Source: a virus | Lineage: Duplodnaviria > Heunggongvirae > Uroviricota > Caudoviricetes | Direction: 5' to 3' (one strand) | DNA length: 64,000 nt | Virus record (IMG/VR): IMGVR_UViG_3300028559_000005 | In this document: piece by piece, positions 21,831-51,256 of the stretch | Numbering within the stretch: position 1 is the stretch's first letter | How the letters are laid out: every line of letters begins with the position of its first letter | The notes under the pieces: model-generated | The model's database searches: none | Told to the model about the DNA's origin: nothing | Seen by the model: only the letters and a program-made list of their open reading frames with translations | Position numbers and translations under genes: made by a program

Positions 21831-22037
21831 TTATTTTGACTCTGCTGCTTCTAACGCATCAGCAGCTTCTTCCAGCAGATCAGCAATGCGGTCAGGCGCA
21901 CCTTCCGCGACACTTTTACGTGAACTGATCTGCCGACGAATCTCAGCTCGCTTGCGCAGACGAAAAATCAAACTTTGTTCACTCACAGGCAAATGGCTTT
22001 CATCTTTCATGCTGCCTCCAGATAGTTGCGTACCCAC
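21831..22037 (-). CDS. hypothetical small protein (68 aa)
   Basis: ORF only. Overlaps the downstream ligase-like gene by 31 nt. Confidence 0.3.
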   Translation of the reverse strand: MGTQLSGGSMKDESHLPVSEQSLIFRLRKRAEIRRQISSRKSVAEGAPDRIADLLEEAADALEAAESK

Positions 22038-22909
22038 GTCAGTCGTTCTTGTTCAGTCTTTGCAGTATATGCTTCTATATCTGCTTGGATGGCAGCAAGC
22101 AAAGGATAATATTCTTCTTCAATTTGCTGCTTGAAATCCTCACGCATCAACTTGTCAGTGTTGGGATTACGAGCAACCCACTTCGAAGTCAAGTAGTAAG
22201 GACTCTTGATTTTGGCACTCACGCCATCTTGGGTATAGAATACATAACCTTCGTGACGACATTCTTTAGTCATCTGTTTGAGTTCCCCTAGACTAACTCT
22301 ATATACTTCGGGAACATAGCAGTTGAATACAGTTCCCATTATTTTGAGAACTTCAGGGCTGTGTCCAATACGACTACACCATTTGTTGTCACGAAGACCT
22401 AGTACATACATACCAGCCTTTTCAGGACAGATGTGCGGATCGTCAGGATGAACACACTCAAACATTACAGTTAGTCCTTGCATGTCGGCACTGGCAAACG
22501 CCAACTGCCAATCAGCCCATGACATGTGAGTTAGCATCATTTCCTTGGCCAGGCCAACAAATGGGCTGTCGGTACTACCGGTAGTAGAAACTAATACATC
22601 ACCGTTAACCCACGTACAAGCAACCATAAAGCCGTTAACTTTACGGTATGCGATTACTTCAGTGTTATCTGACAGCACAGGTGATTCTTTTTCAATACCA
22701 TAGTTGTAGATCTTTGTAAATGGATATGTAACTAGGTTAAAATCCTTGTCTACAATAGATCCACGACATTCGGCAATATATTTGTTCCACAGGTTCTTAT
22801 AAAATACAGTTTTTTTGTATTTCAAAACAAAGATACCGTCACCAGCTGGTTTCATCGAAACCAACTTAGGATTGTCGGCTACATATTGCTTCAATTCATC
22901 TTTAAACAT
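22007..22909 (-). CDS. putative RNA ligase / nucleotidyltransferase-superfamily protein
   Basis: Candidate KxNG motif I (AYRKVNGFMV) and later acidic/His segments. Sits within the RNA-repair neighbourhood. Assignment is tentative. Confidence 0.35.
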   Translation of the reverse strand: MFKDELKQYVADNPKLVSMKPAGDGIFVLKYKKTVFYKNLWNKYIAECRGSIVDKDFNLVTYPFTKIYNYGIEKESPVLSDNTEVIAYRKVNGFMVACTWVNGDVLVSTTGSTDSPFVGLAKEMMLTHMSWADWQLAFASADMQGLTVMFECVHPDDPHICPEKAGMYVLGLRDNKWCSRIGHSPEVLKIMGTVFNCYVPEVYRVSLGELKQMTKECRHEGYVFYTQDGVSAKIKSPYYLTSKWVARNPNTDKLMREDFKQQIEEEYYPLLAAIQADIEAYTAKTEQERLTWVRNYLEAA

Positions 22910-22910
22910 T

Positions 22911-23114
22911 TTATCTACCTACAGTAATCATTCGAACCCGTAATGCGTTCAGATTAGTTTGGATATCAGTCAACTCAGTCAATGCTTTGGTGTAATGACC
23001 ATTGGGGTGTTTGTCGTGTCCTAGTTTGCGATCCACACCCATGGCCATCTTTGTCGCGGCAATAGCTGTGTCAACTGCTTCAATACGTGCTTCAAGTTTT
23101 TCTAAATCTGTCAT
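22911..23114 (-). CDS. hypothetical small protein (67 aa)
   Basis: Preceded by the conserved GGAGTTGAAGAATG initiation motif. Confidence 0.4.
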   Translation of the reverse strand: MTDLEKLEARIEAVDTAIAATKMAMGVDRKLGHDKHPNGHYTKALTELTDIQTNLNALRVRMITVGR

Positions 23115-23144
23115 TCTTCAACTCCAAAATGTTTTCTGATCGTA

Positions 23145-23447
23145 TTAAAGTTTATCATAATAATCTCTAATAGCACTTAGGCCAGTCTTGGCTGGTCCGC
23201 CTTTTTTAGTCTCACTAAGTGATAATGCACTTAATACATCTTCCTCACTGAGGTTGTACTTTTTCATGATCTCCTGAGATTCAGTTCGTGCTTGAAAAAT
23301 CAAAATCTCTCGTGCCTGCGCTTTTTCAATTTGAACAGTCAGGGCCGCTGCCTTTTCTGTAGAAGCCTTGATGTTTGCCTTAAGGACTTCAAGAGCAGTG
23401 TTCATCTCTCTTAAAGATGGTATGGAATTCATGTTAGTATTGTTCAT
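23145..23447 (-). CDS. hypothetical small protein (100 aa)
   Basis: Preceded by the conserved initiation motif. Coiled-coil-like. Confidence 0.4.
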   Translation of the reverse strand: MNNTNMNSIPSLREMNTALEVLKANIKASTEKAAALTVQIEKAQAREILIFQARTESQEIMKKYNLSEEDVLSALSLSETKKGGPAKTGLSAIRDYYDKL

Positions 23448-23479
23448 TCTTCAACTCCGAAATCTAATTCATTTTGTTC

Positions 23480-23639
23480 ATTAGCCTTGGAATCCAGTGA
23501 CTTGTTCAAATAGTTCCAGAAAGTCTAGGTCACTGAGTGTGGCAATCTCGTCCGGGCTGATGCTAAACTCTGTGGCCAGAGTGGTGTCATCTACGGAGAA
23601 CAGGATACGCTCAGTCATCATTTCACGCAGTGTCATTCT
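23480..23639 (-). CDS. hypothetical small acidic protein (about 52 aa)
   Basis: Hand-translated MTLREMMTERILFSVDDTT...GFQG. Starts at the ATGA junction with the upstream paralog. Below the ORF-track cutoff. Confidence 0.3.
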
Positions 23640-23854
23640 TCAACTCCAAAATGTTGTTTTAACGCATTAACATATTGACCATGTATCTCACCATCATCAA
23701 TATTCCAATATACTCGGGCACATTCCCGCACAATCAACTCGGCGAACTTTTCCAAATCTCTCTCACTAAAATACACAGCAGACGGCATATTCCAATCGCC
23801 ATGCTCCCAATGTGCTCCAGCCTTGACAGCAAGTTTACCAATTCGTTCGTTCAT
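23633..23854 (-). CDS. small paralog family member P1 (MNERIGKLA...KFAELIVRECA...HFGVEE)
   Basis: Shares N-terminal, central and C-terminal signatures with seven other ORFs in this window. Confidence 0.55.
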   Translation of the reverse strand: MNERIGKLAVKAGAHWEHGDWNMPSAVYFSERDLEKFAELIVRECARVYWNIDDGEIHGQYVNALKQHFGVEE

Positions 23855-23855
23855 A

Positions 23856-24362
23856 CTATGCTCCTACAATGCTGCGGGCTTGCGCCATCAATGTGGCATC
23901 ACCGCGGGTTAATACTTCTAACAACATACGCTTTTCTTCCAAATACACTTTTGCGAATGCAGGGTCGTGTGCCATGATGCTGCGGCTGTTGGCAATTAAG
24001 TCGGCCAACTTCACTGTAGCTGCCGCTGCAGGTGCCATTGCAGTATGTTCACGGTCGATGGCTTTGCGAACAGCCCTGTTGCCTTGTTCTGGAGTACTGA
24101 CATCAGTCAACCACCCAACTAACTCAGCAACTTCGTTGCCAAACTCTGCTTGGATATCCACAATGGTCACACCAGTATCTTCCACGGTGTCGTGCAACCA
24201 AGCAGCAGCCAACATCTCATCAGTATGAGGCACAGTGGCAACAATACTGGCAACTTCAGCAGGATGCACAATGTAAGATTCAAATGTGTACTTTCGTACT
24301 TGTTTAACCGCAGCATGAGCAGCGGTAGCAAATACTCGGGCTCGCTCTACTATGGTCATCAC
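23856..24362 (-). CDS. HD-domain phosphohydrolase, RelA/SpoT-type (p)ppGpp hydrolase-like
   Basis: HD motif [14 protein letters not shown] matches the SpoT/Mesh1 hydrolase signature (LHDxxEDT). 168 aa single-domain protein. Confidence 0.55.
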
Positions 24363-24388
24363 GTGCTCCTTTGTTGGTCTATGTGTGT

Positions 24389-24417
24389 ATTATAACAAAA
24401 CGAGCAATACCGGTCAA
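24389..24417 (-). promoter_or_regulatory. sigma70 consensus promoter (TTGACC-N17-TATAAT) for the HD hydrolase gene
   Basis: Minus strand: TTGACCGGTATTGCTCGTTTTGTTATAATA, followed by AAAGGAG and ATG. Confidence 0.6.
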
Positions 24418-24427
24418 CCAAAATTAT

Positions 24428-24976
24428 TCACACATGATGACCTTTGATTGCGCCCTTTAGACCAATTCGAATAGCTTCGTCCATAGAGATAGCAATCATA
24501 CCAGTTGCGTCCATGCCCACATCCACACAACGATATCGTTCCATTCCGCTGATGCCACCGTGCAGGTGTCCATGCAAGTGAACCGCACCGCGATGCATTT
24601 GATCCCATTCTGCAATAGGATAATGAAACATCACAACTTTGGTTTCGTTGAACTGCACATCCAGATACTTGTGGATTTCTGTGAAACAGTTGCGAAACGC
24701 AGAATCTTGTAAAGTCTTGCGGTCGTGGTTGCCTTCGACCAAGATCTTATATCCATTGCACCTCTGCATGTATTCTGCTGCTTTTTGAGCAGGCAAGAAT
24801 GCCACATCGCCTAGAATGTATACAGTGTCTTCAGGAGCAATCAAGTCGTTCCATTCTTTAACCATTTGCTCGTTCATATAGTTTACGTCATTGCGAAACC
24901 TTGCACGTGACTGGGGACAAAAACTCATGATATTTTTATGCCCGAAATGGAGATCACTGGTTATCCAATTTTTCAT
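24428..24976 (-). CDS. calcineurin-like metallophosphoesterase
   Basis: SDLHFGH and VEGNHD metallophosphatase motifs. The start is taken at the internal MKNW (ATGA overlap with the upstream ORF). The ORF track extends it to 25081. Confidence 0.6.
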   Translation of the reverse strand: MKNWITSDLHFGHKNIMSFCPQSRARFRNDVNYMNEQMVKEWNDLIAPEDTVYILGDVAFLPAQKAAEYMQRCNGYKILVEGNHDRKTLQDSAFRNCFTEIHKYLDVQFNETKVVMFHYPIAEWDQMHRGAVHLHGHLHGGISGMERYRCVDVGMDATGMIAISMDEAIRIGLKGAIKGHHV

Positions 24977-24977
24977 A

Positions 24978-25229
24978 TTATTTCCTTTTGACCTGGCCGA
25001 TACGACTGGATTTGTTCCAGGTGTAATCCACACCGTCGGGGGTCTTGCCGTTGACCACAGCGTCCACACCCGGCTTGCCAACTTGATTTAAATCTTCCGC
25101 TACCATGGTAACAAAGACCATGCCCAACTTGCGAAATTCTTCGGTATAACGAAGTGCTTCAGTCAAAGTGTCAGCATTGTGTGCGTGACTCCAATCTGTC
25201 ACCGGATCTGTGTAGTAGATTTTAAACAT
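24978..25229 (-). CDS. hypothetical protein (83 aa)
   Basis: ORF downstream of a promoter-like element at 25236-25265. Confidence 0.4.
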   Translation of the reverse strand: MFKIYYTDPVTDWSHAHNADTLTEALRYTEEFRKLGMVFVTMVAEDLNQVGKPGVDAVVNGKTPDGVDYTWNKSSRIGQVKRK

Positions 25230-25235
25230 AGTGCT

Positions 25236-25265
25236 ATTATATAGTACGGATGATATTCAGGTCAA
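25236..25265 (-). promoter_or_regulatory. sigma70-like promoter (TTGACC-N18-TATAAT)
   Basis: Minus strand: TTGACCTGAATATCATCCGTACTATATAAT. Confidence 0.45.
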
Positions 25266-25274
25266 TAGGAGTTG

Positions 25275-25658
25275 TTATATAAATCCATCATCGGGATAGG
25301 GTTGTACCGTCCACCCTATGGCAAACAAGTCTTGACGGATCTCATCAGTAACAAAACTCTCACCCACATAAGAATCATTATTGCTGTTCCGGTTGCTGGG
25401 TGCTATCGTGCCCGAGCAGTACCAATCCATGTAGTCGCCTTGATTGCGTATATCGGCAATGATTCCACCAGCAGATCTCCAGGTACACGACCAGTAGAGA
25501 TCAGCAATTCTGGGCCATACATCGTTTTTTTGGAATAAATTATTGCATATGGCTGCATAGAGATTTTGAGCGTAAGTGTCGCTGTCAATTATTTTTTGTG
25601 CCATCCATTTGCTGGCCACAATGTCTTGTTCAAGATCATTGACAGGATCGTCTTTCAT
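25275..25658 (-). CDS. hypothetical protein (127 aa)
   Basis: ORF only. Confidence 0.4.
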   Translation of the reverse strand: MKDDPVNDLEQDIVASKWMAQKIIDSDTYAQNLYAAICNNLFQKNDVWPRIADLYWSCTWRSAGGIIADIRNQGDYMDWYCSGTIAPSNRNSNNDSYVGESFVTDEIRQDLFAIGWTVQPYPDDGFI

Positions 25659-25858
25659 TGCAAAGTACGTGGCGGGTTAAGAAGATCGGATTGCAAGTGT
25701 TCTGGGAGATCTGCAAAATCAACTTTTCTGCTTTGCGCAGCAATTTCTTCAGAAGTCATGGATTCAAACGTTTCTTCAATTTCTGCTTTCAAAGCATCCA
25801 GTTCTTCTTGGGTGCCATCAAAATTATCAAATGCTCCAGGTGCAAATTGTACTTTCAT
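25655..25858 (-). CDS. hypothetical acidic small protein (67 aa)
   Basis: ORF only. Stop/start coupled with the downstream ORF. Confidence 0.35.
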   Translation of the reverse strand: MKVQFAPGAFDNFDGTQEELDALKAEIEETFESMTSEEIAAQSRKVDFADLPEHLQSDLLNPPRTLQ

Positions 25859-25892
25859 AGTGTGTCCTTGAAAAAAATGGTAGGATGTTTTG

Positions 25893-25965
25893 TTGGACCC
25901 TCCGGACTCGAACCGGAACCTTACAAATTATGAGTTTGCGGCACTAACCATTATGCTAGAGTCCA
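25893..25965 (-). tRNA. tRNA with anticodon CAT (third CAT species; possibly Ile2 or elongator Met), CCA not encoded
   Basis: Acceptor TGGACTC/GGGTCCA-A. Anticodon arm GCAAA-CTCATAA-TTTGT. T-arm TCCGG-TTCGAGT-CCGGA. Confidence 0.5.
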
Positions 25966-26050
25966 ACAAAACACCCTTTCCTAAGTGTTTATTATAGTTG
26001 ATATTTATTTAACCGTCAAGTGCTTTTTACCACTAGCCAGGATATTATTC

Positions 26051-27022
26051 TTATTTTGTTGTAAAATTGGGAAGCAAAAATTCTTGTACTCTTGGTAACG
26101 TAAACAGTATGGGAGGCAGTTGATCCACTGGAAATCGTTTCAAAATTGATTCTGGTTCCCAGGACAAACTCTCACCTTCTTCAAATTTGAATCCTTGACT
26201 TCTATGCCGTTGATGCCCTTGATTTGGTGCATGTGCATATGATCGGCTTTTGATTTGATTTCTAGCATCGCCGCCCATCCAACTAAAATGCCATCCAAAG
26301 TTATCAAATATTTCTCCTCCTATTGTGGGAGTAATTATCTGTGCCGGAACATGATACTTGCATCTAATGCGATGCGGAGTTGTTTGGCTTACTATGGATT
26401 TTTTACAAATACTCATGGCTGTACGCCAAACAAATGGCCACCCTGCACGAGCATATGGTCGTAAGTCAGCTCTACCATACAGATTGATCAATGGCAACTT
26501 CACAACCGTATCAGGATTATTACGGGCCACATTCAATGCAAATTCAATATGGTTGGGATTGATAATTTCATCAATATCGCTCATCAAAAACCAATCGGTA
26601 TCATCAAATTTGTAAAGTACCTTCTGCAATGCATTACGTTGAATGCGTTCTCGTGCCACCGCTTGTATAGATATAATATCTGCACGATCCTCGGGAAACT
26701 GTGCATCAAAGTCATGTTGTTCCAACTGCAAATCAACGTCATCGGCTATACGAACTTCAATCACAGTGATTTTTTCTACAGGGAGCCCCAACTCAGCAAT
26801 CAAGTTTTTTAACTCAAATTGCCTAGGCAACCCGCTGAAAGTTTTATTGGCTTCTGAGATCACAAAATGATCCACGTGATCTTTCAATAGGTTGATCCTT
26901 AATTCTAACAACTCACGTTCGTTGAAGTAGGGGAAATAATCAATAAGTCGATCTGCCACGATTACCTTTCTTGTTGTTTTAAGATCCACATAGTCAAGTC
27001 CGGTCCACCAATCAACACACAT
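26051..27022 (-). CDS. glycosyltransferase, GT17-like (beta-1,4-GlcNAc-transferase family fold)
   Basis: LIDYFPYFNERELLELRINLLKDHVDHFVISEANKTFSG matches the Glyco_transf_17 N-terminal signature (CFLFNNExDLLExRL...VDxFVIVES). Confidence 0.55.
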   Translation of the reverse strand: MCVDWWTGLDYVDLKTTRKVIVADRLIDYFPYFNERELLELRINLLKDHVDHFVISEANKTFSGLPRQFELKNLIAELGLPVEKITVIEVRIADDVDLQLEQHDFDAQFPEDRADIISIQAVARERIQRNALQKVLYKFDDTDWFLMSDIDEIINPNHIEFALNVARNNPDTVVKLPLINLYGRADLRPYARAGWPFVWRTAMSICKKSIVSQTTPHRIRCKYHVPAQIITPTIGGEIFDNFGWHFSWMGGDARNQIKSRSYAHAPNQGHQRHRSQGFKFEEGESLSWEPESILKRFPVDQLPPILFTLPRVQEFLLPNFTTK

Positions 27023-27267
27023 TGATTAGTGTACTTGAGGTAGCCTGATTCCCTACGATACCCTGTTGTCATTAGTGGGATCACACGCACCTGTTTGGGT
27101 GTGATCTTGACCACTTTGCCCACCATCAAAGAATTCTGATGCGTGAATGCAACTGCATCCCCTTCAACCACGTCACGACCCAAAAGATCGTTATGTAATT
27201 CAACTTCAACTTGCATTCCAAACTTCCTTGAACCCTTCTTCTTCAGTTGGATCTTCCCAACTTGCAA
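26962..27267 (-). CDS. hypothetical protein (101 aa)
   Basis: ORF only. Confidence 0.35.
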   Translation of the reverse strand: MQVGKIQLKKKGSRKFGMQVEVELHNDLLGRDVVEGDAVAFTHQNSLMVGKVVKITPKQVRVIPLMTTGYRRESGYLKYTNQCVLIGGPDLTMWILKQQER

Positions 27268-27667
27268 TCATACTGGCAACAACATGATCCGGAATGTCTT
27301 TTCCAGGTCGGCTCATCAATCGACGCATAAGTTCTGTATGTTCCGGTGTCTTAAACACCACAGCAATATGCTCGTAGTCGGGCAACATGTTGAATTTCTT
27401 CTTGCGGCTTTTGACTGTAGTGCTGGTTTGATCCCAAATGATATCATGCCCGTGCTCTCGAGCATGAACAACCGCTTTGACCATTAGATCTACCGCTGTG
27501 GGCATATAGTCAACAAACACTTCAGAATAAGTTTTACCTTGTTCCTTGGCGTATGCTTCTACAAAATTATCTGTGCTAACCACAGTTAGGCCCAATGCCC
27601 AATCTTGGCTCTTAATCCAGGTGCTTTTGCCCGAACCTGGCACTCCCACTAATACGTAAACTTTTGG
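27206..27667 (-). CDS. P-loop polynucleotide kinase-like protein (T4 Pnk kinase-domain-like)
   Basis: VLVGVPGSGKSTWIK is nearly identical to the T4 Pnk Walker A (GCPGSGKSTWAR). No phosphatase domain. The start is trimmed to the internal MPKVYVL. Confidence 0.6.
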   Translation of the reverse strand, partial: PKVYVLVGVPGSGKSTWIKSQDWALGLTVVSTDNFVEAYAKEQGKTYSEVFVDYMPTAVDLMVKAVVHAREHGHDIIWDQTSTTVKSRKKKFNMLPDYEHIAVVFKTPEHTELMRRLMSRPGKDIPDHVVASMIASWEDPTEEEGFKEVWNAS

Positions 27668-28170
27668 CATTATTTTCCTACAACTTGATATTGGCTCAGT
27701 GGGTAGCGTTTTTGTAACCATTCCACTAGACCTGGCTCCCAGGGCAATTTAATTGATCCGTTACGATTGATAATGTATTTCATTTCTCAGGTACTTCATT
27801 TAAGATATCTTCGCACATCTTCAATCCGCGTTCCCATCGAGCCATCATTTCACGGAAGGCGGCAATGTTAGCACGATTGTGGAACAAGTCTCCACTCCAA
27901 ACAGCAGCATCAATCTCGTCCATTGCACCATCTTCAAGACGTTTGTAGTGATCAATCATTGTTCATGTCCTAGTGTTGCTGGACTGTGATCCAGTCGATT
28001 CTGATTTGTATCTGTATAAAAGAACGCATCAGAATCAGTTATTGTAACACACAAATCACTATGGGTCAAATCATAGTCCACAAAGTCCGTGCCATTGTAC
28101 ACACGAAAATAATAGTTACCATCAAAGGAACAAATCAAATGTCCTTCTACACCGTTAGCCGACTTTGGTT

Positions 28171-28425
28171 TCATAGTGCAACTCCGAAATGTTTTACAAT
28201 CTCTATCACACAATCCCTGCGAAACACATCCTCAATTTGATCTCTATAATCTTTATATCCAGGAGAAAGGTTTTCTACAATACCAACACATTCCGCCACC
28301 ATCAACTCGGCGAACTTTCGTGCCTTGACAACACTTTCGTGATCGGGTGTTCTAGCACCCGAAGGCAGAGTGTCCCATTGAATAAGATCGGCCTGTTTAG
28401 CAAGTTCAAAAATTCGTTCGTTCAT
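28171..28425 (-). CDS. small paralog family member P2
   Basis: MNERIFELAK...ARKFAELMVAECVG...KHFGVAL. A divergent copy located 5 kb from the main cluster. Confidence 0.45.
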   Translation of the reverse strand: MNERIFELAKQADLIQWDTLPSGARTPDHESVVKARKFAELMVAECVGIVENLSPGYKDYRDQIEDVFRRDCVIEIVKHFGVAL

Positions 28426-28429
28426 TATA

Positions 28430-28660
28430 TTACCCACTTGTTTTGATTACTTCTAGTATTGTGATTTCGAGTACCCTGTGATTCCGTAAACTCATAAATG
28501 TCACAAACTTGGCTTCGACATCACTTTGACTGTATTGTTTATGATATGGCATTGTTGCAACATCCTCATACGGTTCTTCATTTTCATCCAACGCAATGAA
28601 ACTTAACTTTACTATACCATGCTCGGGTTCTTTGAATATGTCAATTAGCTTATTAAACAT
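28430..28660 (-). CDS. hypothetical small protein (76 aa)
   Basis: ORF only. Confidence 0.3.
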   Translation of the reverse strand: MFNKLIDIFKEPEHGIVKLSFIALDENEEPYEDVATMPYHKQYSQSDVEAKFVTFMSLRNHRVLEITILEVIKTSG

Positions 28661-28695
28661 TTATCTACCTACTGCAATTATTCAAATTTGTTTGT

Positions 28696-29055
28696 TCATT
28701 CTTTGTGCCAATTACCTTGCAAACAATGCAAGAACTCATGTCCAGCTGTACGCATATCCACCTTCTCGGGCAAGATCATCACGCAACGGTCCTTTTGATA
28801 CCATGTGCATGCCAGTGCTCCGTTAGGGAATCCATTGAAGCCGAACTTGCGACTTTGAGCATCACACACGGCTTGTATCTCGGAAGCCTTGGCATACCGT
28901 ATCTCCACTTGTGTGTTGTTGGTGAGATTCTGTTTCATATCAAACAACCGCCAGGGGGAGTTGTCAAACTCCCATGATCCATGGTTGTCGTTTTGGTCCT
29001 GGCCGCAGCCTGCAACCATAGTCAATAACACACATACAAAAAGACTTTTCAACAT
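28696..29055 (-). CDS. small lipoprotein with HExxH metallopeptidase-like motif
   Basis: Lipobox LLTMVAGC after an N-terminal signal. HEFLHC motif near the C-terminus. 119 aa. Confidence 0.45.
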   Translation of the reverse strand: MLKSLFVCVLLTMVAGCGQDQNDNHGSWEFDNSPWRLFDMKQNLTNNTQVEIRYAKASEIQAVCDAQSRKFGFNGFPNGALACTWYQKDRCVMILPEKVDMRTAGHEFLHCLQGNWHKE

Positions 29056-29058
29056 AAA

Positions 29059-30087
29059 TTATTTCTCGCCCAACAGGTACTTGTTAGAAATAGCTTTGAA
29101 AGACATCCCGCCACAAACTTCCTTGAACACAATACCTTCACGCTGTACTGTAGAATTCAATATTGACATGTCCTCTGCCCATTGCAGAATTTCTTCTACA
29201 GAGCCAACACCAAGGTCTTTATCGACAGAGATAAAGGGAACATGCAGTAGACCCAATGATTTAACCATGGCACGACGGAATGCTGGATCAACATAAGCAC
29301 CACTATGAATATTGTACACATCAAACACACGAAACTCTGGTTGAGACAGCTTGTAGATGTTGTTTTGAATTCCAGGACCAATCAACTCACCTTGAATTGC
29401 AACGTTGTCGTAATTGTTGTTACGCAGCTTTTCTTCAATTTGCTCTCTGCGAGCAACTTGCCAGAATGTGTTATCAGCAGTTTCTTTCAAGTCCAAGTTA
29501 CGTGAGCAAACACCAAATTCTCCATCAATCAGGTACACAGTCATTGAAGAGCCTTCTAGCTTTTCGGTAATCTCAAATTGAGTACCAGCTTGTGCAGCCG
29601 CAAGGATTTCTTCAACAAGATTTTGCGCACGTTCCTGATCAGTCTTGGGAATCAACGATGGGAAGTTACCTTTAGCCAGGCCAGCCAGCTGAGCATTCAT
29701 TGGGCGTTCCCACTTGACAATACCAAGTGTTTCAGACACGTCATCACCTTCCACAAAAGAATTAGTTTGTGGAATAGCAAAGTCAAGATTCAGCAGCAAG
29801 CCTTGTGACAGTTGTCCACGTAGTTTTACAGTGCGTAGACGTTCTCCGCGGATGCCTTCAAACTCGCGAGGCTCTTTGCCTTTGGATAGGAATGGTGCAA
29901 GCTCTGTAGGGATCCATGAGTCAATTTCGCAATAGACCGCACGATCGCCAACTGAGAATTCACCTTTCTTGACCACCACCTTCCACCCGCCAATGGTAGC
30001 GCATTCAATAGCATCTGCACCCTCGATAGGGGTTAGTGCATCAATCTGACGAATAGTTGCCATTTTACGCATTTTATTTCCTTCCAA
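29059..30087 (-). CDS. putative RNA ligase (Rnl1-like nucleotidyltransferase)
   Basis: ITEKLEGSSMTVYLIDGEF resembles the T4 Rnl1 motif I (TKEDGSL). 342 aa. Assignment is tentative. Confidence 0.4.
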   Translation of the reverse strand: MEGNKMRKMATIRQIDALTPIEGADAIECATIGGWKVVVKKGEFSVGDRAVYCEIDSWIPTELAPFLSKGKEPREFEGIRGERLRTVKLRGQLSQGLLLNLDFAIPQTNSFVEGDDVSETLGIVKWERPMNAQLAGLAKGNFPSLIPKTDQERAQNLVEEILAAAQAGTQFEITEKLEGSSMTVYLIDGEFGVCSRNLDLKETADNTFWQVARREQIEEKLRNNNYDNVAIQGELIGPGIQNNIYKLSQPEFRVFDVYNIHSGAYVDPAFRRAMVKSLGLLHVPFISVDKDLGVGSVEEILQWAEDMSILNSTVQREGIVFKEVCGGMSFKAISNKYLLGEK

Positions 30088-30280
30088 TCTTTGAAACTAC
30101 ATTGGCCTTGCTTGATTGCAGTTGATACAGGAACCTACGGTATGTGCGCAGTGCTGCAATACTCATTGGATCTTGTTTGCCTTCAAGCTCGGAAATCTTT
30201 GCTTCCAACTCTTGCTCTTTTGCACGGTGGCGCTCGATATCTGCATTAAGTCCTTTTGCTTTGTTCCAAAAGTATTTCAT
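30074..30280 (-). CDS. hypothetical small protein (68 aa)
   Basis: ATG preceded by AGGAGAA and the promoter at 30304-30332. Confidence 0.4.
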   Translation of the reverse strand: MKYFWNKAKGLNADIERHRAKEQELEAKISELEGKQDPMSIAALRTYRRFLYQLQSSKANVVSKIGRK

Positions 30281-30303
30281 ACTGTTCTCCTGTCTATGGG
30301 TGT

Positions 30304-30332
30304 ATTATACGACCAAAACAATAACCGGTCAA
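30304..30332 (-). promoter_or_regulatory. sigma70 consensus promoter (TTGACC-N17-TATAAT)
   Basis: Minus strand: TTGACCGGTTATTGTTTTGGTCGTATAAT. Confidence 0.6.
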
Positions 30333-30344
30333 CCAGTAGGGGTT

Positions 30345-30842
30345 TCAGCTACCTGTACTCAGCACCAGTGTGCGAGGATCTTCTGCATCTGTTGTAAAGT
30401 CTTCAATGAACATATGATGGGCATCACCACTGTCACGGATACAGGTGTTGGCTGCAATCCACAAAGCTGACCAAGTCAGGCCATTGATGCCACAGCTCAC
30501 AGGATTCTTGCCCCAGTGATTCTTGTAGACCACACGATCAGCACCCTCGTAGGGGTGGCGATCAGAGAGATTATCCACCTCATACACACTCCATTCACTA
30601 TTGTCCATGCCTAGTTGCCGACCTACGTCACTGTAATGATTGGACTTGCGATCCATAGAGTCATTGTCCTCTTGGTAGGCACGATCAAGGCCTCGACGAA
30701 TTTCGCTGGCACCGTGAGCCAATCGTTTGTACAGTTCGGGATTGATCACTTGTTCAAGACGCTGAACGGCACTTTCAAGTTCACAAAGGCCGTTGTGAAT
30801 AGTCTTAAATTCTTCAGCGGTAAGAGTAGGATTACAATACAT
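30345..30842 (-). CDS. hypothetical protein (165 aa)
   Basis: ORF only. Confidence 0.4.
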   Translation of the reverse strand: MYCNPTLTAEEFKTIHNGLCELESAVQRLEQVINPELYKRLAHGASEIRRGLDRAYQEDNDSMDRKSNHYSDVGRQLGMDNSEWSVYEVDNLSDRHPYEGADRVVYKNHWGKNPVSCGINGLTWSALWIAANTCIRDSGDAHHMFIEDFTTDAEDPRTLVLSTGS

Positions 30843-30863
30843 TTTGGCTCCTGGATTATAAAA

Positions 30864-31118
30864 TTAATTGTAGTCTGTATCAAGCTCAAATTGACCATCG
30901 TACCAGGAATCTTCCGCTGTGAGCACACGGTTGATCTCTGTGACACTGACCAGGACTGTGTCGCGAACAGCACCGTAGACTTTGAAAGGCTTGTCTACCT
31001 TGACGGTGTACTGAACATCACCGCCGTACTTGACACGGCTTTCAGTGACCAAGCCACTGTAGGGGAACAGGCCCATGTACAGTCCATTGATTCGATCACC
31101 AGTTAGATCCCATTTCAT
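30864..31118 (-). CDS. hypothetical protein (84 aa)
   Basis: ORF downstream of the PeSL-like promoter at 31145-31173. Confidence 0.4.
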   Translation of the reverse strand: MKWDLTGDRINGLYMGLFPYSGLVTESRVKYGGDVQYTVKVDKPFKVYGAVRDTVLVSVTEINRVLTAEDSWYDGQFELDTDYN

Positions 31119-31144
31119 TGCCTGCTCCTTGTTGCGATGTATGT

Positions 31145-31199
31145 ATTATAACAGCATTTGGATAACCCGTCAACCTGACGGGTTATTTTTGTTTTTTCT
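31145..31199. promoter_or_regulatory. PeSL-like cassette: sigma70 promoter (minus, TTGACG-N17-TATAAT) overlapping a hairpin that is a plus-strand terminator
   Basis: Inverted repeat ataacccgtca-acc-tgacgggttat followed by tttttgtttttt on the plus strand. Minus strand: TTGACGGGTTATCCAAATGCTGTTATAAT. Confidence 0.55.
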
Positions 31200-31568
31200 T
31201 ATTTTTCACGTAAAAGTCCGACTCTTCTTTGGGATTATTCCTGGTTTTTTATTATCTATATCAAGTTAACTACCAGTAATAATATTGTTATTAATAATAC
31301 ATGATAATCTATCATTTTCTAATCCATGCAATATACCCGCCATTGGTATCGCTCCAGGGACAGTGTTGCTCCCACAGTGCCAGAGCCTCAGCTTTATCGG
31401 TGTGAGTTTTCATAAGATTATCAATCGTGGGTCTAGTGAGATATCCCTGATAACCCCAGTTGTGTGTGTTCAATGCAGTTTCGAGTTCATTCATATTTTC
31501 TCACTTCTAGTTTATATTATAACACAAAAGAAAAGGGCCTCATGGCCCTTTTACTTCTTTTTATCTAA

Positions 31569-32363
31569 TCACTTCATCATCAATGCGTTGAAGTTCGAAG
31601 GAACAACAATAGTCTGTACCTTACCAGCCTTGATACCTTCAGAGATATTCAACATAGCCTGGGCTTGCATGAATGCGATAGAGCTACCTGAGTTGTTTGC
31701 AAGTGCTGCCATTCTGCGAGATTCAGCCTCAGCAGTCTTAACTTCAACTTCTTTTTGCTTCAATTCATTCTTTGAACGAACCAATGCATTAGCAGATTCA
31801 ACTACAGTATCACTTGGCAACACATTACGAATCATAACCTGGTTGATAGTAATTGAACCATCAAGTTTTTCCTCAGCAAGATTTCGCTGAATTTCATCCT
31901 TGATGTAGTTTTCCATCTCAGTACGATTGTCTGCCATATCCAATGCCTCATACTTTCGTGCGGCTTTGTAGATAGCATTACGAGCATTTTGCACGATGTA
32001 GTTATACATCACATAAGTATCGCCCTTAAACTCAGCGTGGAAGCTTTTGTTCTTAGTTGAATACAATTCGGACACTTGACTTGAATTGATGTTATAGACA
32101 ACTACCGCATCAAGGTCTTTCATGGTCGAGTTGTCTTTAGCAACAGGAGTCATATTCTCCAAGACCACGTTAACATCCTTCACGGGGAAAGTCAACACAT
32201 CACCGATGAAGGTTTGATTGAATGAGCCGGGCATCAGTTCACCGGGTTTGACTTGTTTGTCAAAGCCGACACGAACACCGACCTCACCAGTCTCGATACG
32301 AGTACATGCAGAGGTCAATGCAACTGCGGCGATAAGAAAACCAACTTTGAAAAAACGATTCAT
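31569..32363 (-). CDS. SPFH/band-7 (prohibitin/HflC-like) domain lipoprotein
   Basis: Signal plus lipobox ALTSAC. Long Ala/Glu/Lys-rich helix AEAESRRMAALANN...AFMQAQAMLNISEGIKAGKVQTIVVP is typical of the SPFH C-terminus. Confidence 0.45.
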   Translation of the reverse strand: MNRFFKVGFLIAAVALTSACTRIETGEVGVRVGFDKQVKPGELMPGSFNQTFIGDVLTFPVKDVNVVLENMTPVAKDNSTMKDLDAVVVYNINSSQVSELYSTKNKSFHAEFKGDTYVMYNYIVQNARNAIYKAARKYEALDMADNRTEMENYIKDEIQRNLAEEKLDGSITINQVMIRNVLPSDTVVESANALVRSKNELKQKEVEVKTAEAESRRMAALANNSGSSIAFMQAQAMLNISEGIKAGKVQTIVVPSNFNALMMK

Positions 32364-33165
32364 TTTAAATAACTCCATAAAGAAAAAGATTAGCACACAC
32401 GAGAAAACCAAGTACAAAATACAAAGGTCTCAGAAGAAAGTCAGGGAACATAATAGTCCTTAAAAGACAACAACGATTGAAATTAACACTGCAATCGTCA
32501 ACAGTGAACACAGTATACTATAACCTAGAATTTTTGTCAAGGCCAGCGCCTCTTTTCCATTCAAAGTTCTTAGTGCATGGATGCCCATAAAGAACCCTGC
32601 GAACAACAATCCAAAAATTAACAACATCTTAATCATAACTTCTTAATCCTTTCAATCAGTTCATTTGCTTCCTTGAAGTCAGTCACATCGACCGTTTCTT
32701 CAACTGTCCGTACAACCCATTCAGTGTAAGGTTGAGACCATCGTACTTTATATGAAATATTCATATTATTTCCTAAGTATATCAAGCATTTCCTGCTTGT
32801 GTTGGTTGATGTATCCTTGCGCTACTTTAATCATGAATTCAGCATGTTCTAAACTTGATGGGAGAACGACCTTTTCACCACGCTCTAGTTCTTGTAGCAA
32901 AAGTCTACATTCATAGTCAGTATAGGGAATCATTTAACACCATAACGCTTTCTGATTTGTTCTAGTTTTTGTTCATACTCAATGTCAATCTCTTTGTTTC
33001 GTTTATGAAAACGATAAAAAACGACCATCATAGGAATGTACACTAAAACAAATACTAAGATACCTGCAGTCCAATTCATTTAAACTCCCGTAGCCATCAA
33101 CCGGCCCAGTAAAGCAAGACAGCCCAGCATAGTCAGCGCCATAACAAATACAAGCAAAAATTCTG

Positions 33166-33399
33166 TCATTCTTCAACTCCGAAATGTTCCTTGATAGTAT
33201 CTTCTACGCCGCCCCAAGGAAGTGTATCATTATACTGTTTCTTAGTAACCAAGAGACATTCTCGCACAATCAACTCGGCGAACTTTTCTTTGTCAAAAAA
33301 TTCTACTTGTTCTGTATAACCTTTGCCCCTATAACCCTCATGCTTTACCTCAATAGTTCTAACAGCCTCTTTAGCCAGTTCTCTAATTCGTTCGTTCAT
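33166..33399 (-). CDS. small paralog family member P3
   Basis: MNERIRELAK...EKFAELIVRECLL...EHFGVEE. Confidence 0.55.
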   Translation of the reverse strand: MNERIRELAKEAVRTIEVKHEGYRGKGYTEQVEFFDKEKFAELIVRECLLVTKKQYNDTLPWGGVEDTIKEHFGVEE

Positions 33400-33486
33400 G
33401 TTAGTTCCATAAATAGAGTCGTATAATTTCACCAAGTACCAAAATGATACAAATAGTGAATGCTTCCTTTATCCCGGCCTTTGTCA

Positions 33487-33750
33487 TTATTCAACTCCGA
33501 AATGTTTTTCTAATCGTATGTACATATGTGTCGCAATGACCTCTTTGGAATGATATTTATAGAATTCGGCATCTTTATCCATTTCTCGTCCCAACAAAAT
33601 TAGGGGTCGGGCACATTCCCGAACAATCAACTCGGCGAACTTACCACGAACGATGCTGTGGTAGATGTCATTGTATCGATCGTTGGCAGGCACCTTGCTG
33701 TCAGCATAGGCAATGGCCTCTAGTTCAAGTTCTCTAATTTGTGCGTTCAT
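33487..33750 (-). CDS. small paralog family member P4
   Basis: MNAQIRELE...GKFAELIVRECAR...KHFGVE. Confidence 0.55.
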   Translation of the reverse strand: MNAQIRELELEAIAYADSKVPANDRYNDIYHSIVRGKFAELIVRECARPLILLGREMDKDAEFYKYHSKEVIATHMYIRLEKHFGVE

Positions 33751-33856
33751 TTTTGTTGCAATAAAAAAGCAGTTAAATCAGGGCCTTCAACTTTTACAAG
33801 TTGGTCGCCGGCTATGTTACAGAGTGCAGTCTTTGCGTCTTGAAAGAAATGCCGGT

Positions 33857-34084
33857 TCATTCTTCAACTCCGAAATGTTGGTTGATCTCGTCAATACATT
33901 GTGTGCCACCATTCAACCAAGTGTCTACACTTTCTGGAACAGGATCACTGATAACTTGTTCGCAACATCCAATACATTCCCGAACAATCAACTCGGCGAA
34001 CTTTTCCTTACTAAAGATTAACTCGCCATCATGCTCGATAAGACTCTGTGCGGCAAACCGTTCTAACATTGGTATCTTGTTCAT
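33857..34084 (-). CDS. small paralog family member P5
   Basis: ...EKFAELIVRECIGC...QHFGVEE. Confidence 0.5.
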   Translation of the reverse strand: MNKIPMLERFAAQSLIEHDGELIFSKEKFAELIVRECIGCCEQVISDPVPESVDTWLNGGTQCIDEINQHFGVEE

Positions 34085-34154
34085 TGTTCAGCCCAGCCCT
34101 GCTCACCACCCTGTTCATCGTAGTCCTGGGGTTTGAAGAACGGAGTAGATCCCA

Positions 34155-34433
34155 TCATTCTTCAACTCCGAAATGTTCTCGAATCTCGTCAACAGCATCT
34201 TCCTTCAAACGATATGCGGCAAACAATGCCCCACTTGCGTTATGTGCTTGTCCTCGGGGCGGGTTTCGGGCAAACTCGTGCCAACTTTCGCCCATTTCAA
34301 CCAACTTGGAGCAACATTCCTTCACAATCAACTCGGCGAACTTTTGATAAGAAAAATCATCATAATAAACCCAATGTGCTGTTTCAATCTTGGCACCTGC
34401 TTGAATGGCAAGTTCATCAATTCGATTGTTCAT
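34155..34433 (-). CDS. small paralog family member P6
   Basis: MNNRIDELA...QKFAELIVKECCS...EHFGVEE. Confidence 0.55.
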   Translation of the reverse strand: MNNRIDELAIQAGAKIETAHWVYYDDFSYQKFAELIVKECCSKLVEMGESWHEFARNPPRGQAHNASGALFAAYRLKEDAVDEIREHFGVEE

Positions 34434-34698
34434 TTGTCTAATCCTCGAACAAATAGACTGCCCACCATTGCCAGCAAGAATAACAATCCAAGACCGATAG
34501 CATAAACTATTAAAAATTCAATCATTCTTCAACTCCGAAATGTTGTTTAATCTTCTAATTCAACATAGTAATAATCGTCGCCTTGAGTGCGGTTCAAGGT
34601 ATCGGCATAATCTTCTGCGTTTTTTCTTGATTCAAAAGACTGAACATATTCTGAGTATGTTTCATTATTTGAATCTACCGTATGTTTTACAATGTATT

Positions 34699-34947
34699 TC
34701 ATTGTTCAACTCCGAAAAAGGTCTTGTGTAATGCTTCAAGATAATCGTCTGTGCCCATGTGTAGATTACCGTTGTCAATCTTGCTGTAGATGCCAGCACA
34801 TTCCCGCACAATCAACTCGGCGAACTTGTCCATGAAGTTTACCTGAGTTTCCCAAGAGTTATTCTGCCCACTTGGATATGCGGCTGAGGCAGTAGCAGCC
34901 TTTTCCCAAAGTTCTTTAATTTTATCGTGCATCTGGATCTTTCTCAT
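34699..34947 (-). CDS. small paralog family member P7
   Basis: ...DKFAELIVRECAGI...TFFGVEQ. Confidence 0.5.
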   Translation of the reverse strand: MRKIQMHDKIKELWEKAATASAAYPSGQNNSWETQVNFMDKFAELIVRECAGIYSKIDNGNLHMGTDDYLEALHKTFFGVEQ

Positions 34948-35122
34948 AACAAGTTAAACATACTGCATCATATCTCGGACCCATACAATGATAAATTGCA
35001 CCATTGCAATACTTGCAAAGAATAAATGCGTGAGTAACAATATAGCCTTCTCCGGGAGCATACATGGGATAGAATCCTTCTTCTCGTTCTGTATAACCGA
35101 TTAGTTTTCGTTCTTCGTTCAT
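34922..35122 (-). CDS. hypothetical Cys-rich small protein (66 aa)
   Basis: CKYCNG...CMGPRYDAVCLTC suggests a Zn-binding fold. Confidence 0.35.
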   Translation of the reverse strand: MNEERKLIGYTEREEGFYPMYAPGEGYIVTHAFILCKYCNGAIYHCMGPRYDAVCLTCYEKDPDAR

Positions 35123-35309
35123 TCTTCAACTCCTAACCAAATCAATACATCTGCCTGTCCAGTGAATACCATCCAAGCGGCGGTAATTCTTTTTCGTAGG
35201 TTTATTCCTGGCCAACTCATAGGTCTTGCCTGAGTCCATAATCCATTCTTTCCAGCGGATTGAACTTCCCAGCATTTGATTTGGTCCGCAGAATATACCA
35301 TAGGTGTTC

Positions 35310-35528
35310 TCATTCTTCAACTCCGAAATGTTGTTTAATCTTGCTACCGATATTATAATCGGTCCCTTCGTTTAGTTCCATATGCTCACACGCAATATTA
35401 GCACATTCCCTAACAATCAACTCTGCGAACTTTTTACGGAAAATAAATTCCCATTCATCTAAGTCAGTTGTTTCTCGACTAGCATATTGACTAGCCTGGT
35501 CTTCAAGTTCTCGAATTCGTTCGTTCAT
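35310..35528 (-). CDS. small paralog family member P8
   Basis: MNERIRELEDQA...KKFAELIVRECAN...QHFGVEE. Confidence 0.55.
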   Translation of the reverse strand: MNERIRELEDQASQYASRETTDLDEWEFIFRKKFAELIVRECANIACEHMELNEGTDYNIGSKIKQHFGVEE

Positions 35529-35969
35529 TTGTATTCCTTCACCAAGCGATCCATTTCGCGGTCAAACCCAACAATGGCCCAGGCCTTGGCCTTGAGGCTC
35601 TTACGAAGAGCACGTTCACGTTCTGCTTCACCGTCTGCTGTACGGGCAAAGTCTGCCCAGGCATCACTGGCTCTGAAATCACCATCGACCCAACCCAGAG
35701 CAATGGAGTACATTGATAGCAGTTTCATTTCTGGTTTCATTCTTGTTCCTTAAATTAACGAACGGACAAACGCTTGAACACTGCCATGATCTCAGGCTTG
35801 TTCATCAGCTTGTCGAATGCTTCCTGTGGGTTGTAGAACTCACCAGTCTTACGGTCCTGAACCATAGGTGCGTTGAGCTTGTGAATGTTATCGCTAACAT
35901 ACTGGTCAGTCCACTCTTTGAACGATTTAGTGTCTTTGCTCATTGTGTGCTCCTGTTCAACATGTATGT

Positions 35970-35998
35970 ATTATAACGCCGAATCAAAGACCTGTCAA
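35970..35998 (-). promoter_or_regulatory. sigma70 consensus promoter (TTGACA-N17-TATAAT)
   Basis: Minus strand: TTGACAGGTCTTTGATTCGGCGTTATAAT, then CAGGAGCACACA-ATG of ORF 35755..35943. Confidence 0.6.
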
Positions 35999-36225
35999 CC
36001 TCTAGGGTTATTCAGCTTGTTCAGTGCTTCGAGGTGCTCAGCCTTGCTCAGTTCCAACTCATAGATCATGTGGATCAAGTAGAGCATCATGATCACTGCG
36101 GCTCCGATGCCAATGTAGGGCAAGGGCACGAAGATCAATAAGGTGCTGGTTAGGGTACCAGCCAGTACAGCCACACCGAATACCTTGGCCATGTTGCGAA
36201 TTGCGGTTTGTTTGGGAGTCATCAT
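35995..36225 (-). CDS. small membrane protein (76 aa)
   Basis: Two hydrophobic segments (AVLAGTLTSTLLIFVPLPYIGIGAAVIMMLYLI). Confidence 0.4.
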   Translation of the reverse strand: MMTPKQTAIRNMAKVFGVAVLAGTLTSTLLIFVPLPYIGIGAAVIMMLYLIHMIYELELSKAEHLEALNKLNNPRG

Positions 36226-36264
36226 ATTTCCTTTGTGTCTATGTATGTATTATAGCAAAACGGT

Positions 36265-36609
36265 TTAACCGTTTTGCTTGACCCGCACATCAGTATTCAG
36301 TGCAGGCATGTACTGAGCAATCAGCTGTCGTTCCAACTTATGTGCAACTTCTTTGCCACGCACAATGTCAACTATGGTTGACACTATGCTATCAGTACCG
36401 GCATTACGAATTGCTTCGTACAAAGCCCAGCTCTTGTCTTCAGTGCGGCTGCGATAGATGTGCTTGTTTACACGGCTACGCAGGCTCATCAACACAGTAC
36501 GCTGAGTCTTGGCAGTGATACCAATGTAAGTCTCGAACCCGATATGCAAAGCATATACAATATGAGTGCGATCAACACGCTTTTTACGAGTGGCTTTTTT
36601 TGCTTCCAT
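36265..36609 (-). CDS. possible GIY-YIG-like nuclease (114 aa)
   Basis: [17 protein letters not shown]...R...KHIY loosely fits GIYxI...YIGxT...R. Weak. Confidence 0.35.
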
Positions 36610-36615
36610 ACATGT

Positions 36616-36644
36616 ATTATAGCCGATTTGACGATTTTGGTCAA
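36616..36644 (-). promoter_or_regulatory. sigma70 consensus promoter (TTGACC-N17-TATAAT)
   Basis: Minus strand: TTGACCAAAATCGTCAAATCGGCTATAAT, then ATG of ORF 36265..36609. Confidence 0.6.
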
Positions 36645-51255: not shown

Positions 51256-51256
51256 T

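Follow-up and report, generated by a model that had tools for sequence, protein, structure and literature searches.

Why do eight small genes of one phage share three short stretches of near-invariant DNA, and what has made the segments between those stretches so divergent? The question is raised by a 64,000-nucleotide (nt) stretch of virus DNA (Caudoviricetes; IMG/VR record IMGVR_UViG_3300028559_000005), hereafter the window, in which a family of eight minus-strand open reading frames (ORFs) lies between positions 23633 and 35528. The original prediction, made from the letters of the window, had described an expanded family of small proteins sharing an MNERI start, a central core and a C-terminal HFGVEE, with six of the copies packed among tiny ORFs at 33166–35528, and the genes, the shared motifs, the six-copy cluster and the expansion are all real. 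Three findings go beyond it: silent sites are conserved within the motifs, the HFGVEE block, as read from the sequence, also provides the following gene with its ribosome-binding site and start, and the divergent segments are shuffled modules. Each gene has the layout B1-V1-B2-V2-B3, in which B1 is the start of the gene, B2 the 30-nt core and B3 the 3' end. We consider it probable that these genes, encoded in an early-type operon, belong to a family of combinatorial cassettes that homologous recombination shuffles at conserved DNA joints.

Three blocks conserved as DNA

All eight ORFs were confirmed in the window and, read from the homologous ATG, encode proteins of 72–92 amino acids (aa). Their alignment shows an N-terminal MNERIxEL helix, the core and a C-terminal (H)FGVE(E), with K-F-A-E-L-x-V-x-E-C and F-G-V as the invariant residues. 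HFGVEE is exact in five of the eight, the variants being HFGVAL, HFGVE and FFGVEQ. Three of the ORFs as first listed have upstream alternative starts (GTG at 28437, TTG at 33435 and ATG at 34947), and in these three the conserved MNERI-type start is an internal ATG. The 30-nt core occurs eight times in the window at ≤3 mismatches, compared to none in 100 shuffles, and a hidden Markov model built from the eight members finds no additional member in the 64-kb window at E ≤1e-3.

Six of the genes form an array at 33166–35528, with mini-ORFs of 25–66 aa between them (all coordinates in this and the next paragraphs on the genes and blocks refer to the minus strand). In m35310 (35310–35528, 72 aa), B1 is found at 35514–35528, B2 at 35403–35432 and B3 at 35310–35330, the last being the putative ribosome-binding site and ATGA start for the ORF at 35119–35313. 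The core of m34699 (34699–34932, 77 aa) lies at 34798–34827, and its B3 at 34699–34719 forms the predicted start of the ORF at 34547–34702. The same arrangement is seen in m34155 (34155–34433, 92 aa; core 34314–34343; B3 34155–34175, start of mini-ORF 34081–34158), m33857 (33857–34084, 75 aa; core 33974–34003; B3 33857–33877, start of mini-ORF 33747–33860), m33487 (33487–33750, 87 aa; core 33613–33642; B3 33484–33504 with a TAATGA junction, start of mini-ORF 33401–33487) and m33166 (33166–33399, 77 aa from the MNERI start; core 33256–33285; B3 33166–33186, start of a hydrophobic downstream ORF). The two outliers are m28171 (28171–28425, 84 aa), with a core at 28288–28317 that has 3 mismatches and a degenerate B3 at 28171–28191 (HFGVAL), and m23633 (23633–23854, 73 aa), with a core at 23720–23749 that has 0 mismatches and a B3 at 23633–23653 that forms the start of the ORF at 23481–23636. 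Because almost all junctions in the array are ATGA (or TAATG) stop/start overlaps, the array appears to be one tightly coupled operon.

At the nucleotide level B1 reads ATGAACGAACGAATT...GAACTT (nucleotide profile ATGAACGAACGAATT..GAACTTGC), B2 reads GAAAAGTTCGCCGAGTTGATTGTnnnnGAATGT (profile GAAAAGTTCGCCGAGTTGATTGT....GAATGT) and B3 reads AACATTTCGGAGTTGAAGAATGA (profile A.AACATTTcGGAGTTGAAGAATGA). This DNA-level conservation of the three blocks extends over thousands of family members whose sequences are otherwise unrelated. A DNA alignment of the eight window copies shows that third codon positions are near-invariant in the core AAGTTCGCCGAGTTGATTGTnCGGGAATGT and in the 3' block CATTTCGGAGTTGAAGAATGA, and the codons AAG TTC GCC GAG TTG ATT ... 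GAA TGT are used in all eight. The core codons are minority codons in this genome: GCC makes up 21%, GAG 25%, TTC 29%, TTG 33%, AAG 35% and CGG 3.9%.

The same preference is found in 261 family members from loci that were fetched by degenerate back-translation of the peptide pattern, so that their codon choice is unbiased; the GC content of these loci is 31–55%. AAG is used in 84% of cores against 41% in the background, TTC in 76% against 35%, GCC in 80% against 25%, GAG in 89% against 29%, TTG in 88% against 24% and, among arginine codons, CGG in 54% against 7%. In 94% of copies GAA encodes the second glutamate of the core motif, and the third position of the valine codon is free. Silent-codon mismatch, taken as the share of identical residues for which two genes use different codons, is 0.27 in B1, 0.29 in B2 and 0.14 in B3 for random family pairs, whose variable parts are unalignable, compared to an expectation of 0.53–0.62 from background usage. 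It is as low in the blocks as within modules common to the closest relatives (0.28–0.41). This measure was used instead of the NG86 pS (proportion of synonymous differences), which is misleading on an 11-codon core because two-fold codons dominate it.

The blocks are no more similar within than between genomes when same-genome and different-genome pairs are compared, and module sharing within a locus is no commoner than between loci (~0.2–0.3% of pairs). Since neither blocks nor modules favour the same genome or locus, block uniformity is a family-wide property, and intragenomic concerted evolution or local gene conversion was rejected as its source, same-genome pairs being no more alike. RNA structure in the blocks was likewise rejected, with minimum-free-energy z-scores of the eight genes near zero (−1.0 to +1.2). 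The complementary hexamers GAACTT in B1 and AAGTTC in B2 show no compensatory covariation, an Rfam scan gave no match for B2 and only a tRNA elsewhere, and none of B1, B2 and B3 overlaps a promoter-like or terminator-like site. It is noted that the plus-strand ORFs at 23675–23977, 28189–28446, 33184–33426, 33713–34021 and 34173–34505 are not genes; their common NQLGELF is the reverse complement of the core, and the same spurious plus-strand "family" turns up in 30 loci.

B3 is composed of GGAG, 7 nt and ATG, and this ATG overlaps the TGA of the family gene; the downstream gene would therefore be translationally coupled. As judged from this layout, B3 is predicted to double as a strong Shine-Dalgarno site and as the start of the next gene. 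Twelve copies of TTCGGAGTTGAAGAATGA occur in the window at ≤3 mismatches, against 0.03 expected, and eight of them are the ends of family genes. An orphan intergenic copy (ACATTTTGGAGTTGAAGAATGA) at 23111–23131 is the putative ribosome-binding site and start for the ORF at 22911–23114, and another at 23444–23461 would serve the ORF at 23145–23447 in the same way. A copy at 35119–35136 ends the non-family ORF 35119–35313 in frame (...LGVEE and stop) and would provide ribosome-binding site and start for the ORF at 34922–35122. The orphan copy at 34522–34552, of which 31 nt are identical to the 3' end of m35310, is placed likewise before mini-ORF 34430–34525, and the stop codon of the ORF at 34547–34702 falls inside this block in another frame. 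Across the window and 213 metagenomic loci there are 432 B3 blocks, 340 at family gene ends and 92 elsewhere; ATGA stands at the end of ~228 of 304 family genes, and in nucleotide profiles the consensus 5' of family start codons is B3 again. Most of B3 lies within coding sequence.

The original prediction had also raised the alternative that a conserved DNA element, read in a different frame, lies behind the shared protein motifs. This is true in part, as the motifs are conserved as DNA and the HFGVEE block is found in non-coding positions and in another frame; protein-level constraint is also real.

Two modules that assort independently

V1 and V2 are separate half-gene modules that can replace one another from gene to gene, and linkage equilibrium between the two is nearly complete. 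They were compared in 454 unique family proteins from the window and the 213 loci, V1 being the segment from B1 to B2 and V2 that from B2 to B3, with sharing defined as ≥70% identity and a discordant other half as <35% identity. V2 is discordant in 173 of 178 V1-sharing pairs and ≥70% identical in only 2, and V1 is discordant in 148 of 155 V2-sharing pairs, the scarcity of pairs sharing both halves being partly due to the removal of identical proteins. The identities of V1 and V2 have a Spearman correlation of 0.008. The largest V1 cluster, with 9 members, is paired with 9 different V2 clusters, and the reverse comparison gives a like result. A replicate on 263 database proteins found discordance in 1110 of 1215 V1-sharing and 2486 of 2665 V2-sharing pairs. 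Seven ordinary families of the same loci, given the same treatment as a control, yielded no discordant pair (0 of 82).

The modules of the window genes recur in other combinations. The V2 of m33857 is present in 72 database proteins, joined to 51 different V1 clusters, and its partners include the V1 of m34699, of m28171 and, more distantly, of m33166; the database protein P0002 combines the m34699 V1 with an m33857-type V2. P0066 combines the V1 of m28171 with the V2 of m23633, and the same m28171 V1 carries other V2 modules in P0085 and P0001. The m23633 V2 is common to loci L120, L121 and L122 as well as P0066, and the m34155 V2 is found in L007 at 91%. The V1 of m33487 is joined to a different V2 in P0103, and the V1 type of m33166 occurs also in L088, L158 and P0009, with a different V2 in each. 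Some database proteins look like tandem fusions of two units, such as P0156 (154 aa, two matched stretches).

The variable segments differ by insertions and deletions, vary in length and are unalignable. The original prediction read them as variable loops under diversification, and this part of it did not hold: they are discrete modules re-assorted by recombination, and within shared modules the ratio of nonsynonymous to synonymous substitution rates (dN/dS) is 0.10 for V1 (167 pairs) and 0.125 for V2 (110 pairs), i.e. 0.10–0.13. A dN/dS of ~0.1 is the mark of purifying selection, so the modules encode functional, conserved and not hypermutated protein. The members are confidently predicted to adopt small helical folds. 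The AlphaFold2 model of m33857 (predicted local distance difference test, pLDDT, 82.6) has a helix, a beta-hairpin in V1, a long core helix and a C-terminal helix, and that of m35310 (pLDDT 91.8) has three helices, with V1 helical.

The breakpoints were located by comparing family genes extended by 1.5 kb to either side. Nucleotide identity within shared modules is 76–97%, and the neighbouring genes are not shared. The high-scoring segment pairs of V1-sharing genes start at the ATG (median offset 0, 5–95% range −26 to +24) and end at the last core codon (median 0, −13 to +8); those of V2-sharing genes start at the first core codon (median −3) and end at the stop codon (median 0). In genome pairs that are collinear on one side, with flanks 86–98% identical, upstream similarity halts inside B1 (e.g. 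...ATGAACGAACGAATT|) or at the core end, where it stops exactly in L033/L133 and L065/L069, and downstream similarity starts at B3 (|AACATTTCGGAGTTGAAGAATGA). Because the similarity boundaries fall at the blocks, the blocks are the observed junctions for half-gene and whole-gene exchange.

Proposed recombination at the blocks and its alternatives

We propose that the modules are exchanged by general homologous recombination between co-infecting phages, for which identical blocks of 20–30 nt would offer the minimal homology. Crossovers at B1 and B2 would swap V1, crossovers at B2 and B3 would swap V2, and crossovers at B3/B1 would swap whole genes along with the interleaved mini-ORFs. Being common to all members, the blocks would be exchanged family-wide and stay uniform, and the modules would persist as many deep lineages. 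B3, and probably B1, would be further constrained by translation initiation. A cassette bounded by B3 would bring its own ribosome-binding site and an intact stop/start overlap, and this intact coupling is a possible reason for the presence of unrelated mini-ORFs between family genes. More tentatively, the acidic helical proteins of ~75 aa may be early-expressed binders of host or defence targets, in which the conserved helices would act as scaffold and the two modules would confer specificity, each phage carrying a repertoire (eight here).

Several observations count against this proposal or parts of it. In 73 locus pairs both flanks are similar, and both modules are the same in all of them, as expected for orthologs; a module swap in an isogenic background was thus seen in 0 of the 73, and no recombination event was directly observed. 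Local gene conversion does not account for the uniformity of the blocks, and the nucleotide sequence of B2 may be under direct selection for another function. The data are metagenome assemblies, and chimeric assembly at a 30-nt repeat, though unlikely, may affect individual contigs. Finally, acidity (median net charge −6) sets the family apart only moderately, as 16% of the remaining small recurrent ORF clusters are equally acidic.

The alternative that survives best, though it is itself rather unlikely, is that the blocks are conserved as cis-acting nucleic-acid signals (translation initiation, a protein or RNase site, or RNA structure), with recombination as a by-product. B3 clearly reads as an extended Shine-Dalgarno sequence plus start and is placed so in non-coding positions as well, and B1 spans the first codons, where codon choice affects initiation. 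The lack of within-genome homogenisation of the blocks would also fit family-wide selection on the sequence itself. For B2, however, searches for a promoter, an RNA structure, covariation and an Rfam match were all negative, and the breakpoints lie exactly at the edge of B2, so recombination there is real regardless. It should be mentioned that this explanation overlaps with recombination at conserved joints and does not exclude it.

Nuclease-driven exchange is improbable. According to this explanation, the GIY-YIG-like protein encoded at 36265–36609 (minus strand; 114 aa; 740 bp upstream of the array) cuts near a block, and repair from a co-infecting genome converts the module, in a form of intron-less homing. 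The ORF matches GIY-YIG homing-endonuclease PHROGs (5.7e-7), and its homologs are the commonest non-family neighbour, present in 39 of 213 loci, where the next real family reaches 22. These homologs invariably share the strand of the family genes, lie at a median distance of 860 bp and are 5' of the family genes in 31 of the 39. The gene is nevertheless absent from 82% of loci (each covering only ~6 kb either side), and its presence is uncorrelated with family density (p = 0.96). Its 114 aa hold a catalytic domain only, without a recognisable DNA-binding domain and with no Pfam match. Homing targets would moreover be expected to escape by mutation rather than stay uniform, and the co-occurrence could be mere synteny in one phage lineage.

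That the genes are ordinary paralogs, which arose by duplication and fast loop divergence with only the essential protein motifs kept, is very improbable. The motifs do lie in predicted helices and the family has expanded in tandem, but the silent positions are held constant on rare codons, V1 identity does not follow V2 identity, similarity has sharp boundaries at the blocks, the modules are under purifying rather than diversifying selection, and the control families behave otherwise. Least credible of all is an artefact or targeted mutagenesis: the assemblies are short-read and the blocks are repeats, but identical mosaic proteins recur, on as many as 40 independent contigs drawn from several sources, every gene would need two chimeric joins where neither flank of a shared half-gene is shared, the 20–30-nt blocks are presumably shorter than the sequencing reads, and a diversity-generating retroelement disagrees with modules that are unalignable with indels rather than A-biased point variants, with purifying selection on the modules, and with the finding of no reverse transcriptase in the 44 window ORFs scanned against Pfam (including all 34 of ≥200 aa).

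Recombination at conserved joints is the reading that we favour, and it bears on the long-debated origin of phage mosaicism, in which homologous exchange at short boundary sequences is set against random illegitimate joins filtered by selection. The family is a very large natural data set for this debate, with hundreds of module-sharing pairs and breakpoints that can be mapped to the nucleotide; the joints are 20–30 nt and the exchanged half-genes ~70–100 nt. A translation-initiation element that doubles as a cassette boundary would mean that any piece swapped in is coupled to the adjacent genes from the outset. Should the proteins bind host or defence targets, their two-module design would amount to a ready-made combinatorial library and a candidate engineering scaffold. 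A stronger form of the reading, which we hold to be doubtful, is that selection keeps the blocks as programmed recombination joints, making V1 x V2 a diversity-generating system for early phage proteins. If true, there would be a population-level repertoire of two-module binders in an arms race with host defences, exchange might be stimulated by the co-located GIY-YIG nuclease, and the system would be a phage counterpart of antigenic-variation cassettes without a dedicated site-specific recombinase.

Distribution, genomic setting and known counterparts

The statement of the original prediction that no known family accounts for the motif stands. No significant match was obtained in Pfam (best E 0.016) or PHROGs (best E 0.045), none in NCBIfam, and PADLOC gave only a weak Csm2 match for one of the eight members (E 0.0016). 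The best E against PDB sequences was 0.23, and Foldseek searches with the two models gave best E values of 1.6 and 4.1 against PDB; the folds are confident and have no solved-structure neighbour there. Neighbours in BFVD are uncharacterised proteins of uncultured Caudovirales only, and a full-text literature search found the family motifs in no paper. A search across 50,697 phage records gave no match even at E ≤1 (megablast of the array, tblastn of two members), and the family was found in metagenomes instead. There it comprises at least 7,995 clusters at 90% identity and 7,284 at 50%, all "hypothetical" and without Pfam domains, and the exact DNA core is present in >119 IMG/VR contigs. Among 185,579 bacterial and archaeal species, with one genome each, the family is on 16 contigs only, all from freshwater metagenome-assembled genomes. 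Among the protein families of uncultured freshwater phages that lack a name it is one of the larger, with several members per genome in early-type operons. Larger arrays were noted on other uncultured phage contigs from IMG/VR (loci L003, L029 and others), where a single locus of ≤15 kb can hold as many as 14 family genes. A metal-binding site (CxxxC...C...H) was rejected as a family trait, the full pattern being present in ~8% of members and no extra cysteine in 54%.

Three window proteins are identical to database entries on one 255,929-bp contig; the m35310 and m34699 proteins are identical to P0025 and P0026, respectively. Genes for a family-B DNA polymerase, a 5'-3' exonuclease, two RNA ligases and several radical-SAM and sugar-modifying enzymes are present in the window. 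Because of such gene content and the matches to the 255,929-bp contig, the source is taken to be a large uncultured phage.

The six-member array likely has its early promoter in a perfect sigma-70 consensus sequence, TTGACA-17-TATAAT (12/12), found 5' of it at 35970–35998 (minus strand). Nine sigma-70-like sites with 11 or 12 of 12 matches, all on the coding strand, lie in 24389–36644 (at 36644, 35998, 32540, 31173, 30883, 30332, 26019, 25265 and 24417), mostly directly 5' of ORFs or of a tRNA gene. The region looks early, as first suggested, because near-consensus sigma-70 promoters stand directly upstream of genes on the coding strand. A bidirectional terminator-like hairpin is present at 31531–31552.

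Within the array, four mini-ORFs at 34430–34525, 34081–34158, 33747–33860 and 33401–33487 (minus strand; 31, 25, 37 and 28 aa) exactly fill gaps between family genes, the junctions being stop/start overlaps or near-abutting. Two of these four are hydrophobic and resemble single transmembrane peptides, and a hydrophobic stretch of that kind is present in 43 of 281 non-family ORFs that start at B3 in all loci. The array also contains two larger non-family ORFs on the same strand. That at 34922–35122 encodes 66 aa with a zinc-ribbon-like CxxC...CxxC, has homologs in 11 loci and starts with MNEER on a B1-like sequence; that at 35119–35313 encodes a 64-aa member of phrog_21988 whose final residues, LGVEE, come from the in-frame B3.

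The two outlying family members are interspersed with an RNA-repair-like gene set at 22007–30087 (minus strand). It includes a T4 Rnl1-type RNA ligase (22007–22909), an HD_4 protein (23856–24362), a metallophosphoesterase-like ORF (24428–25081; recognised by eye, with no Pfam match), a tRNA gene (25893–25965) that has a consensus promoter to itself at 26019, an AAA_33/zeta-toxin-like kinase (27206–27721) and another RNA ligase, which carries a PHA02142 OB domain (29059–30087). The window RNA ligase has its best phage match, at 56% identity, in a Limnohabitans phage, and by this match Limnohabitans or other freshwater Burkholderiales are candidate hosts. The gene set resembles the toolkit of kinase, phosphatase and ligase with which T4 counters anticodon nucleases. 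The case for a host-takeover or anti-defence role of the family is circumstantial; the early-type operon, the acidity, the near absence from bacterial genomes and the neighbouring RNA-repair-like genes point to it.

The window further carries a heavy load of auxiliary enzymes (8403–9446, 20559–21323, 41847–42707, 44312–46237, 48935–49723, 12428–13219, 50302–51321 and 42704–43489). They include four radical-SAM ORFs, of which one is a weak match that falls short of the Pfam cut-off and one carries a B12-binding domain, as well as GTP cyclohydrolase I, two NAD-dependent sugar epimerases/dehydratases, a methyltransferase, glycosyltransferases and a PfkB kinase, and they may serve nucleotide or sugar modification. 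A TctC-like binding protein is encoded at 3085–4014.

We have compared the family to known systems in which conserved DNA flanks exchanged segments. In bacterial antigenic variation, for example in Neisseria pilE/pilS, minicassettes are moved by gene conversion, one-way from silent copies into one expression locus of a single genome. In both systems conserved DNA flanks the variable pieces and recombination between copies gives new combinations of a small expressed protein; in contrast to pilE/pilS, all copies of the present family appear to be expressed in an operon, and there is neither a within-genome likeness of blocks nor an excess of module sharing within loci. For lambdoid phages, boundary or linker sequences together with relaxed homologous recombination have been proposed as crossovers between diverged genomes. 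The short conserved sequences at module edges would act alike as crossover points here. The lambdoid boundaries, however, separate whole functional regions, whereas the present joints lie at or inside a ~230-bp gene, with hundreds of breakpoints mapped in one family.

A closer parallel in design is the gp38 adhesin of T-even phages, in which glycine-rich motifs (GRMs) separate hypervariable segments (HVSs) (Trojet et al. 2011, PMC3157838). The gp38 protein is a virion adhesin for receptor recognition with four HVSs, and recombination in the conserved motifs swaps the segments (PMC3157838). Like gp38, the family consists of small phage proteins in which conserved motifs separate independently assorting variable segments, and here too the motifs would form the structural core. 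Unlike gp38, its members are acidic and helical, lie in an early-type region, have two modules and are multi-copy per genome; they resemble gp38 neither in sequence nor in fold and have no adhesin context, and one joint is the predicted ribosome-binding site of the next gene.

In T4-type phages, small early genes are shuffled by promoter-early stem-loop (PeSL) cassettes (Arbiol et al. 2010, PMC2839356; Comeau et al. 2014, PMC4122927). A PeSL lies between genes and combines a sigma-70 promoter with a terminator stem-loop, and mini-circles have been shown experimentally (PMC2839356, PMC4122927). Both systems have a repeated short expression-related DNA element as the recombination joint among small early genes, which in the PeSL case are non-essential ORFans. 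The difference is that B3 would act in translation, through its Shine-Dalgarno sequence and ATGA overlap, without promoter or stem-loop, and that B1 and B2 lie within coding sequence, so that half-genes are shuffled and not only whole genes; the present family is known from sequence comparison. The logic of shuffling at conserved joints is already known from the T-even gp38 motifs and the PeSL cassettes, and what is new here is the half-gene as exchange unit, the joint with predicted translational coupling, the near-complete linkage equilibrium and a very large unnamed family.

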